DNA of 64,000 nucleotides, from positions 20,088,001 to 20,152,000 of the forward strand of contig CM069165.1 in the NCBI GenBank assembly GCA_035221665.1, given 5' to 3'. Positions 6,701 to 10,888 of the stretch are shown piece after piece. Source of the DNA: Okamejei kenojei. Lineage: Eukaryota. How positions within the stretch are numbered: the first letter of the stretch is position 1; every line of letters begins with the position of its first letter. The notes beneath the pieces are model-generated. The model was not told the origin of the DNA, did not search any database, and worked only from the letters and a program-made list of their open reading frames with translations. Position numbers and translations under genes: made by a program.

Positions 6701-8249
6701 GCAGAAATTAAAACAACATTTAGAAGTATATGACGGCATAGACGAACGCAACTAAACAATATATATAAATGGTAACGAATCTTGTCACGGGAAAGGTTTA
6801 AGCGGGTAGTTTGTGCTACCGACACTTAACGAAATTAATTGTTCACTCTATTTAAATAGATCCCTAGTAAGAAATGGATGAACAGCATGTGAAATATTTC
6901 TCAAACTTATTTTCCTACGAGCTATCCTTTATTTTGACTGCGAATAACTGCCAGTTGGAAGAAATGAAACACCCGCGTATATGTAATGCCAGAATAGTTA
7001 CGTAAGCGGGATAGTTTTTCAACATAATAAAAATGTTTAAATGAATCATAGCTTGCCGAGAAATTAAACATTTCATCCTCAAACTATGAAGCATTTTATT
7101 ACCTTTCGACCAAGAAGCGGATGTTTTCGATTTAGGAAGAGAAATGCTCTTGAAAGATAAGCCGAACTACCTGCATTTTCTCAGCTCTATGTGTCATGAC
7201 ACCCGCTATTTAATAAGAAAAAATAACGCGAATTATGAAATTGATTTTAATTAGGAAATCCGCATGGCTTCACGTCACATTTGGGCCTCTTCTGTTCTGA
7301 TGGAATCTTTCCCGGAGGTGTTTTGAAGGCAACATCAGCAAGGGAGGGCAGATTACATGAAATGGTAACATTCCTAAATCAATCACCTTAGTCTCGGTGG
7401 TTCGGTTAAATTCGAATGATGCCCAGATATTGCACATGGAGGTAATTCGGGCTTGTTAATGGTCTGTGATTAGGTGCCTCTGGAGCGCGCTCTATAATGC
7501 CACCAGTCCGAGGGTAGAGAGCTCTGAATGGGAATAAAACATTACAGAGAAAATGTCCAAGGTGAGCATAACCACGAAAAAAAGGTCGCCTTTGATGTCC
7601 ATAATTTGTATCTTTTACTGCTATTAAATTACTAACTGATTATTCAGTCAGTAAATCAACTTTTAATTTTCAAATCAAGGTGTACTTCCAGAGACGCGAT
7701 AGAACAAAGGGGAAGATGCTGCTAAATATTGCGTTGTTTTAAGCTAGATTCTGATGTTCCTGTTTGAACCCTGTAAAGTGTTCACTATCGTCCAACACAA
7801 CGGTGGGGCGACTGGAGCAAGATCTTTTTATTCAGTGCATTAAATTAACTCCACGCCGCCCAGTAACACGGATAAAGCTCCGACTCGACTCGATATTGAA
7901 TATTAATGCGACCAAACAGATTGGATAATAAATGTGACATGGAATTAAATGAAGCTGTTGCTGATCTACATGACCCGACTCCCCCCCTCGCTCCACGCGG
8001 AGACAGGCAGTTGCGGAGAAAGGAAACGCGCCTGACAGATGCAATCAGATGCAAATGGGGGCAGAAGAGCTGAAATTATCATCTACAAACATTCCGTCAA
8101 AATTCCATCTGCTTCCCTCTATATCTATATCTACGCGTGTATATATAGGGACGGACGGGGAGCCGCCGCATCTTAATAAGTTATGGGACGGCAAATTGAC
8201 ACACATCTTAATCAAATGTTAATCCAAGAAATTAATTCACAGCGCGTGT

Positions 8250-8418
8250 ATGTCTCTCTGCCTCTCTCTCGTTCTCTCTCTCTCTCTCTCTCTCTCGTTC
8301 TCTGTCTCCCCCCCCCCCCTCTCTTTCTTTATCTGTCTGTCTCTGTCTCTGTCCCTCCCTCTGTGTGTGTCTCTAGTTCTCTGTCTCCGTATCGCCTTCT
8401 CTCTTCCTCTTTCTTTCT
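8250..8418. repeat. CT-rich compound microsatellite
   Basis: (CT)n and (CTGT)n runs seen directly. Confidence 0.9.
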
Positions 8419-9181
8419 ATATCTTACATGGAGAATGTTATCAGACTGTATAAAACTATAGATATGTATTTGGTCATAGAGTGAGGCATCTGACATGAAT
8501 TGGAGGGTATATTATTTAACATGCGTGGATTTGATTTTAGCAATTAGCGCTTTAAGCATGGGCTAAGTTTGGGTTGTAAACAACAGTTTAGAACCCCGCC
8601 TCATTCGTTCGCCTGAAGTTAATACACCAGATATGGTGATGTAGAATTTCAGTGCAATTGACTTTTTGGGGGATTTATTTAAATAACATCAACGTTTGGG
8701 CTCGAGATACGAATATCATGTGCTGATTTTCACAAATGAAAATTGGATCGGAGTTTGGAGGGAAGGGGGAAGTGTAGAATCAAAATAATGGTGTACCAGA
8801 CAAACAAAAATAAAACCAGAACATTCACGTCACCGAAGTTAGGTGGAAGACTGACCGTGAAACTAGCAATCGCAAGAGACGAATCTCAACGACTCCAACA
8901 GCTCGAAACCGGCCTGAAATTGTGAATATGCAGTTTATAAATGCACGTCTTTGTCTCACGTTCAGTCTTTAATGGGCCGCATAGCTGCGAGTTCGATAAA
9001 ACGTAATTACGATCTGTTTCGAAGTTAATTAAATGTCCTAGCCTTTGCAATAAAGTTGCTGTCTGGTTAAATTGTCAGGGTGAAGGGGGCGAGGGCGCAT
9101 GGTTTGCCTATATTTCGGACCCCTATAATTCACTAAATAATGCAAAAGTCCCCTTGGTTGACATGCATTGTTTGTAAGTAA

Positions 9182-9329
9182 AACTAGGCACAAAATGCTG
9201 GAGTAACTCAGCGAGACAGGCATCATCTCTGGAGAGAAGAGATGGGTGACGTTTTGGGTCGAGATTCTCTCTCTTTCTCTTTCTCTGTCTCTGTCCCCCT
9301 CTCTCTGTCTCTCTCGTTCACTGCCTCTG

Positions 9330-9373
<44 letters not shown>

Positions 9374-9638
9374 TTTCTCGAAAAAGAGTGAAAACGGATG
9401 TCTCCTGAGGCAATGACCAACACCTCACAAAACTCGGATTTATTTAACAAATAACGACGGTATTATAACCATCCTGTTTCGAGGATCTGATGACATTTCC
9501 AAACCAGGAACGTGGCGAGATCTCGACCCGAAACGTCACCCATTCCTTCTCTCCAGAGATGCTGCCTGTCCCGCTGAGTTGCTCCAGCTTTTTGTGTCCA
9601 TCTTCGGTTTAAACCAGCATCCGCAGTTCCTTCCTACA
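9182..9638. mobile_element. Penelope pseudo-LTR-derived foldback element carrying captured genomic cargo
   Basis: Inverted arms ~9186-9263 and ~9521-9598; 16-bp TSD cattgtttgtaagtaa at 9166-9181 and 9639-9654; interior 9380-9517 matches 10419-10540. Confidence 0.85.
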
Positions 9639-10761
9639 CATTGTTTGTAAGTAATACTTCTCCCCAAACATTGGCTCTGCCTGGCGATACCTCCCTGACA
9701 GCTGTCTGGGTTTACACCGTGGTAGAAATCACATCTCTTTGCATCGTTTTTATCACGTTTCGAGCGACATCTCAAAAACGTTGTATAGTCAATAAACTGT
9801 TTCACGGAATGAATGTATTGGCTAATATATAGACAAACTACAGACATGTGCGCTTAGGAAATCAGATTCGCCGTGGCAAAACGAATAAGTCTCTGCTTTC
9901 TTGATAGTCAGTAAAAAAAAAGTAAATATACACTGACTCTCTTGATTACTGTAATTATAGGACCACAATTTATCAAAGTTAATGTCGCAAGTAGAATGTG
10001 TGTTCGCTCGGATTTTAGCGCAAACTTCATGTTGTGAAGTGCGGAATAAGATCCAATGATAACCACATTATAGTGGACTACAAGTCCGGGCTTTGCTTGC
10101 TGTTTTGTTTTGTTAAGGAAAGATAATATGAACCACAGTAAATGGACTCAAAAAAACACAAAGTGCTGGAGTAACTCAGCCGGTCGGGTAGCATCTCTGG
10201 AGAACATGGATATGTGATGTTTCGGGTCGGAATCCCACTGAAGGGTGAGGAGAGTCGTATTTTACTAAAATATCGCAAGACGTTGTTATAGACAAGGAGG
10301 GCAATCGATTAGTGATTCTCGTCACGATTCGCATAGAATGGGAGACCCATCCAATTTGAACTTTCAATTTGACGGCGTCTCCGCTGTGAATCACTGTGAA
10401 TCGAACGGGAAAGATTAAGAAAAAAGAGTGAGAACGGATGTCACAAAACCGCGTTTTGTGAAATATTCAACAAATAACGACGGTATTATAACCATCCTGT
10501 TTCGAGGATCTAATGACATTTCCAACCCAGGAACGTGGCGTGATGTATGTTATTAACTTTATTTTGAGTTAGAAAATGTTTTAAATTATGAATTCCCAGG
10601 TGAAGATTGTAGCTGCCCGATCCAAAAAAACAAAATCACAGTGGCAATAAGGCGGCGCAGAGAGAATCGCAGAAGGGAGAGTCTTTGTTTAGGTTGGGTT
10701 TGCAGATGTACGTTGACTTGACTTTGCATCGCGTTTCACTTTTGCAGCACAGACGCATCGA

Positions 10762-10888
10762 ATGGAATATAATTTGTCGAGTGGAGTTCTGACCGACTCG
10801 GATGCTCCCGATCGCAGCCCGATGACTCTCTCGGATTCCGGGACCCCACAAAGAGAATCCATCTGCAAAGCACACCAGGAGAGCAGCG
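10762..10888 (+). CDS. pitx3: Pitx3 coding exon 1 (N-terminus MEYNLSSGVLTDSDAPDRSPMTLSDSGTPQRESICKAHQESS)
   Basis: Matches the Pitx3-specific N-terminus (L-TDS...RSP..LSDSGTPQ...CK); acceptor ttcacttttgcag ends at 10747; donor G|gtaag at 10889; phase 1 joins the next exon to give GAT (Asp). Confidence 0.92.

Follow-up and report, generated by a model that had tools for sequence, protein, structure and literature searches.

Pack-MULE and Pack-TIR elements carry host DNA between inverted transposase TIRs, and their cargo is spread. A second system is the repair-mediated duplication: Pace et al. (2009, PMC2671141) describe 824 cases within 5 kb, with a mean length of 162 bp and 20 two-donor chimeras. 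Described features of Penelope-like elements (PLEs) are a truncated arm in inverted orientation, a tail on one side, a target duplication (TSD) and a junction palindrome (PMC8557442, PMC3846280, PMC11167929), and unrelated host DNA has already been reported between solo pLTRs inside TSDs (PMC3846280). Templated insertions at LINEs are documented in 22 cases (10.1101/2024.08.27.596794) and in three more (PMC11702581; also PMC4245944; for related literature, see PMC2912911 and 10.64898/2026.07.22.740005).

Here we analyse a window of 64 kb from the skate Okamejei kenojei, the whole stretch of DNA to which our coordinates refer (Table 1). At 9182-9638 it holds a unit whose two inverted arms, with a tail on one side only, are bounded by an exact 16-bp TSD; we call it the 9k unit. 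The first-pass annotation had described an inverted-arm unit bounded by a 16-bp TSD, and this description is confirmed. Between the arms lie two pieces of filler, and the filled unit occurs a second time as the 26k copy. The locus preserves a legible record of two copying events, one linked to the other: from a donor into a foldback, and from the filled foldback into a second copy. For the DNA that lies between PLE ends it provides a donor that could be traced, and it bears on how the inverted ends of PLEs are joined, a question left open in the cited accounts of these elements.

How does the 9k unit compare with the described systems? Like a Pack-MULE or Pack-TIR element it holds host DNA between inverted ends, but the ends belong to a retroelement (pLTRs, not transposase TIRs) and there has been no spread of the cargo. 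With repair-mediated duplications (PMC2671141) it shares copies of about 90 and 120 bp taken from about 1 kb away, a low-copy donor within 5 kb, two donors, an acceptor site in a transposon, no poly-A, and microhomology or filler at the junctions (a match at five of six positions on the right, a short TC match on the left, none between the two pieces). Unlike the cases in that paper, it has the axis of a PLE foldback as its acceptor and a donor on each side; its product was copied again at a distance of 17 kb, and repair would have followed insertion. The layout of arm, tail, TSD and palindrome is that of endonuclease-positive PLE inverted-pLTR insertions (PMC3846280, PMC8557442). In contrast to those cases, for which the accounts cited trace no local donor, the donor here is identified and local; the 9k unit also carries no gene, and nothing was mobilised in trans. 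As in LINE templated insertions, nearby genomic DNA of less than 250 bp sits inside a retro-insertion. Here, however, a PLE is the carrier and the filler may post-date integration; the donors lie at a distance of about 800 bp, whereas 15 bp or less is typical of the LINE cases cited. Among literature titles we found none on locally traced fillers in PLE foldbacks; closer cases may be present in the supplements of PMC3846280 and PMC11702581.

Table 1. Features of the locus, in window coordinates
Feature	Position	Strand	Remark
Probable donor 1, compound CT tract	8320-8417	+	750-850 bp left of target
Left TSD copy, 16 bp	9166-9181	+	exact repeat of 9639-9654
Inverted short arm, assigned to the PLE pLTR end	9185-9265	-	no tail
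CT-rich filler	9266-9379	+	probably copied from 8320-8417, since expanded as (CT)n
Second filler piece	9380-9517	+	copy of 10419-10540
Palindrome, 10 bp	9516-9525		inner end of right arm
Right arm and tail of about 42 nt	9521-9638	+	tail on this side only
Right TSD copy, 16 bp	9639-9654	+	exact repeat of 9166-9181
Donor 2, unique DNA	10419-10544	+	770-890 bp right of target
Pitx3 first coding exon	10748-10888	+	ATG at 10762
Pitx homeodomain exon	17720-17925	+	homeodomain placed at 17791-17928
Second-generation copy (26k)	26109-26552	-	9k left flank and TSD (9149-9185), left arm, filler, right arm, tail
Host segment X	26553-26582	-	repeated at about 26079-26108
Neighbouring foldback A	26583-26786	-	2-nt spacer, very stable hairpin

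To judge from their sequence, the arms are pLTR ends of an abundant endonuclease-positive PLE. The family has 44 matches in the window and 772 units in the 1.66 Mb that we surveyed (C35, C5 and C15). Its parent element is represented by a 5'-truncated, degenerate RT and GIY-YIG copy with a 13-bp TSD (L097:421-2030), in which a 307-aa RT-like frame is followed by a Cys-rich linker (C-x4-C-x2-C) and a broken GIY-YIG-like motif. By Pfam alone the match of this copy is weak (RVT_1, E 0.036), whereas two close homologues that we scanned gave RVT_1, below the curated cut-off, together with GIY-YIG, above it. The nearest named homologues are shark, skate and ray proteins. Through this copy the pLTR end is linked to an ORF with RT and C-terminal GIY-YIG; the 9k unit itself shows the inverted truncated arm, the tail at one end (30-40 nt being the length expected of such elements) and the TSD. 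Longer arm-family copies begin with what we take to be a minimal hammerhead core, read by eye; an Rfam scan of the 64-kb window returned sub-threshold hairpin matches only and no hammerhead. This core, which is upstream in the family, is cut off from the right arm of the 9k unit. A Cys-rich linker between RT and endonuclease is described as a feature of the Neptune clade (PMC3846280).

The two arms are 91% complementary over 77 nt (9189-9265 and 9520-9596), and their inner ends fall at an identical pLTR position. The same 6-mer stands on both sides of the filler. On the right it forms the first six bases of the 10-bp palindrome; on the left it recurs at 9260-9265, where the filler junction has one extra T. 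Compared with the end of donor 2 (10539-10544), the 6-mer matches at five of six positions.

The second filler piece had been claimed as a copy of 10419-10540, and this holds. Positions 9441-9521 and 10464-10544 are identical at 77 of 81 sites, and 9381-9402 matches 10421-10442 at 95%. A 19-bp insertion in the 9k version separates the two matching blocks; it is a later change, and it is missing from the 26k copy and from a contig of organism E. When the 2.76-Gb assembly was searched with the donor and with the cargo, by a method that skips very common words, three places only were found: the donor, the 9k unit and the 26k copy (26229-26346). The cargo is low-copy and not a dispersed repeat, just as the first-pass annotation had expected.

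The donor is present in organism A and in four of four relatives, B to E; for organism D we have a donor contig only, which is not proof that copies are absent. This distribution supports a donor that is ancestral, as had been proposed. Organisms D and E and the 9k cargo all lack two bases held by the donor of A at 10457 and 10459, so the cargo keeps an older donor state. No cargo contig was seen among those of C and D and no 26k-type contig among those of E; these are gaps, not proof of absence.

Could the region be misassembled, a condition that would have undone the original claim? We consider this very unlikely. Contigs of A (second sample), B and E run from the left flank into the left arm; contigs of the same three also join the tail to the right flank, via only 10-26 tail letters, below our 31-letter rule. 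Organism B holds both 9k-type and 26k-type variants as well as a contig spanning the 26k flank junction, and organism E holds a 9k-type contig. Among the contigs of A (second sample) and the relatives, none bridges the filler-arm junctions of the 9k unit, and those of the relatives, which break inside the arms, include no filler-free orthologous allele.

The 26k copy takes along 33 bp of the 9k unit's own flank. Because it contains both this flank and the TSD, it derives from the 9k locus; the flank has two matches in the genome. The two versions of the unit are 4-7% different. At 26k, the tail and segment X together form a direct repeat of 75 bp, with seven mismatches, that frames the copy. 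Its right arm differs from that of the 9k unit at one of the first 76 positions and at seven of the last 45. Its tail has two rare variants in common with the tail of foldback A, and only one of 142 other copies has both. A-type tail variants on a 9k-like right arm point to a return by homology into the arm of A, and a switch between homologous arms apparently produced the 26k copy. The right arms of 9k, 26k and A, like eight of 142 others, have a rare G at arm position 61, for which a simple switch-back does not account.

How ordinary is the 9k unit within its family? Among tailed units, 25 of 153 have a TSD of at least 12 bp, against one of 153 in a shifted control. The 1.66-Mb survey yielded 187 head-to-head pairs, 41 of them with a TSD of at least 9 bp (range, 9-17 bp). 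Since 40 of these 41 foldbacks have a tail on one arm only, the frame of arm, tail and TSD at 9k is ordinary. Low-copy filler is lacking in 37 of the 41, and filler of at least 60 bp is present in three. The screen of other foldback spacers that had been suggested found a local donor at 9k but none at the other 40, and general filler capture by this PLE family is rejected. One other foldback of the family, TSD-bounded at L077:4548-4884, holds 120 bp of unique filler with no second match in the genome. Another candidate, L042, was set aside when its extra sequence proved to be a dispersed repeat.

Two further places in the survey deserve mention. At G000:C5:30317821-30318137 the 5' end of a unit adjoins 43 bp that repeat, in inverted orientation, DNA lying about 110 bp downstream of that unit, a candidate for local capture. 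At G000:C35:20472253-20473545 the right arm of a foldback, itself decayed, is interrupted by a 47-bp copy that is 98% identical to a source at 1.2 kb.

The inner ends of the 9k arms are unusual. Of 392 units, 171 start within four bases of one fixed pLTR position; the 9k arms end 15 nt past it, where four of the 392 start. The two ends lie within 2 nt of each other in five of the 41 TSD-bounded foldbacks. The palindromic centre of the 9k type has one exact match in the genome, at L168:1381-1607, a spacer-less and perfectly palindromic foldback with a one-sided tail, a TSD-like repeat of 8-9 bp and no filler. Loop-free stems of at least 8 bp occur in two of 113 tight foldbacks.

Short local duplications are common background. 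After nine of 50 were removed because they fell in two segmental-duplication regions, 41 remained in the 1.66 Mb (about 25 per Mb), most of them away from PLE ends and 22 of them in direct orientation. Duplications at unit 5' ends reach p 0.05-0.08 when 9k and its copy are included; with both excluded there is no enrichment at these ends, one of the three observed remaining against a null mean of 0.87.

We propose, at about an even chance, that the filler is a two-donor repair-mediated duplication made at the palindromic centre of a PLE foldback. Two short PLE ends lie inserted head-to-head inside one 16-bp target duplication. We infer that closure of the foldback first gave a perfect palindrome, which later broke at its axis. 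The right broken end would have primed on donor 2 through the microhomology and copied about 120 nt. The left end would likewise have primed on its own side, at the CT tract, and been extended by about 90 nt. Both extensions would then have been joined without microhomology, by two-ended synthesis-dependent annealing or by loop-out end joining. Subsequently the filled unit would have been re-copied once, inverted, to 26.1-26.55 kb: synthesis would have entered the 9k left flank, crossed the unit and then, likely through homology, returned to the right arm of foldback A, duplicating the tail and about 30 bp.

Repair of this kind is favoured because the inner ends of the two arms share one non-preferred pLTR position, because the same 6-mer is found on both filler sides and because L168 is a filler-free palindrome with the same centre. 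It is also favoured because size, distance, insertion site in a transposon and number of donors match repair-mediated duplications, and because local duplications mostly lie away from PLE ends. An upstream donor on the left and a downstream donor on the right, both direct, are expected from loop-out priming at each end (PMC2943611), and an RNA template is not needed for the observed order and orientation. Several points count against it. The TSD is equally compatible with capture at integration; the right 6-mer could be donor-derived with one substitution, and the extra T stands at the left junction; perfect palindromic centres are rare; donor 1 is low-complexity sequence that draws on a post-hoc score; and the missing filler-free orthologue, the unbridged filler-arm junctions and the G at position 61 must be set beside these. 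On balance, the 9k unit is likely a repair scar of a known kind and no vehicle for genes, and no function of the filled unit is indicated.

Alternatively, the DNA could have been captured in one step: both nicked target strands would have been primed on element RNA, and the two cDNA ends would have used nearby chromosomal DNA as template during their joining. The filler does lie where two cDNA ends would be expected to meet, inside one TSD, and the cargo has diverged about as much as the arms. An anole PLE protein is described as cutting and extending both strands, its two start sites defining the tail (PMC11167929), and L1 and ZfL2 yield templated junction DNA (PMC11702581, 10.1101/2024.08.27.596794, PMC4245944). 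Capture in one step nevertheless requires two ends to stop at an identical, rare pLTR position and leaves the repeated 6-mer unexplained. In the sources cited, L1 templates are typically no more than 15 bp from the site, against 800 bp here, and unit 5' ends show no excess of local duplications once 9k and its copy are removed. We regard it as the main rival and a strong one, though less likely than later repair. The first-pass annotation had proposed local templated copying during integration: the local copying is supported; the timing is possible, although the junctions are somewhat better accounted for by repair of a palindrome that already existed than by capture at integration.

A separate question is whether the CT-rich filler was copied at all. 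Only 10419-10544 may have been captured, at either time, with the CT part a microsatellite seeded by slippage at the arm end. Under standard scoring, pure (CT)n tracts score as well as or better than the local tract, and the 9k tract is expanded relative to that at 26k. Against slippage, the alignment of the less expanded 26k version with 8328-8414 spans 88 columns, needs two gaps and keeps the G/A interruptions colinear. No token shuffle in 300 reaches the score of the 26k copy at any of four token sizes; for the 9k copy, 10 of 300 do so at 8-mers. Ranked against 285 other pyrimidine tracts, 8320-8417 comes third for the 26k copy and sixth for the 9k copy by the standard score; it comes first when purines are given more weight, a scoring picked post hoc. 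An upstream CT-rich sequence of the PLE family was also considered as the source; none outranked the local tract among the tracts ranked. The resemblance to 8320-8418 noted earlier thus stands up to token shuffling, although it is first-ranked only by the post-hoc weighting. These comparisons give moderate support to the CT part being probably a copy of 8320-8417; its local origin is likely, and slippage correspondingly unlikely.

On a more far-reaching reading, PLE foldbacks in skates might act as breakage-prone sinks and homology relays, drawing DNA from both sides and passing a filled unit to a neighbouring foldback, so that a repeat family of very large size would shuffle unique local DNA around developmental genes; in its boldest form, PLE reverse transcriptase would work on nascent host RNA. 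We think this improbable.

For the 9k unit itself, a template jump would have carried PLE reverse transcriptase from its own RNA to nascent Pitx3 RNA, yielding two sense fragments, with the 26k copy a read-through retrocopy. The first-pass annotation had hinted at a nascent pre-mRNA template. Both filler pieces are indeed Pitx3-sense, a splice acceptor 14 nt before the Pitx3 ATG implies a non-coding upstream exon, template jumps have been proposed for PLEs (PMC3846280) and the 26k copy includes 5' flank. The hint is not supported: two sense pieces arise by chance one time in four, and direct orientation is frequent in the background duplications. The 26k tail is of the A type, not the 9k type, and its 75-bp repeat far exceeds the family's TSDs. 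A jump to RNA also assumes that 8320-10544 is transcribed. A splice origin of the two-piece filler is rejected, since no GT-AG marks the point where the pieces meet. We therefore hold a jump to Pitx3 RNA to be highly doubtful.

The label 'Pack-element-like' was misplaced, since the cargo was never dispersed beyond a 17-kb neighbourhood and its carrier is a Penelope retroelement stub; the existence of a second full copy at 26k notwithstanding, a Pack-type element transposing with its cargo, or an assembly artefact, is scarcely credible, given that the 26k copy carries 9k flank and TSD 17 kb away, the genome has no other matches, the copies differ, and flank junctions or variants recur in contigs of other organisms.

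Donor 2 ends 208 bp upstream of the AG at 10746-10747, the acceptor of the first coding exon of Pitx3. This exon is 93% identical to stingray Pitx3 over 41 aa (two candidates scored), and the last exon of the gene contains the OAR motif. Was potential regulatory DNA duplicated, as had been suggested? Among the columns listed, organism D differs from the donor by about four substitutions and two deletions in about 108 bp, and from the donor flank at 22 of 378. With divergence much like that of the flank, the donor shows no special constraint, and 10419-10544 contains no TAATCC/GGATTA site; a cis-regulatory value is for these reasons unsupported, as is any regulatory role of the copies or effect on Pitx3. 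Elsewhere upstream of the gene, the stretch 8100-8255 contains a TATA-like motif and a TAATCC site, making it a candidate Pitx3 promoter or non-coding exon, and a possible splice donor lies near 8480. In organism E this stretch differs at three of 156 positions, compared with about 6% nearby.
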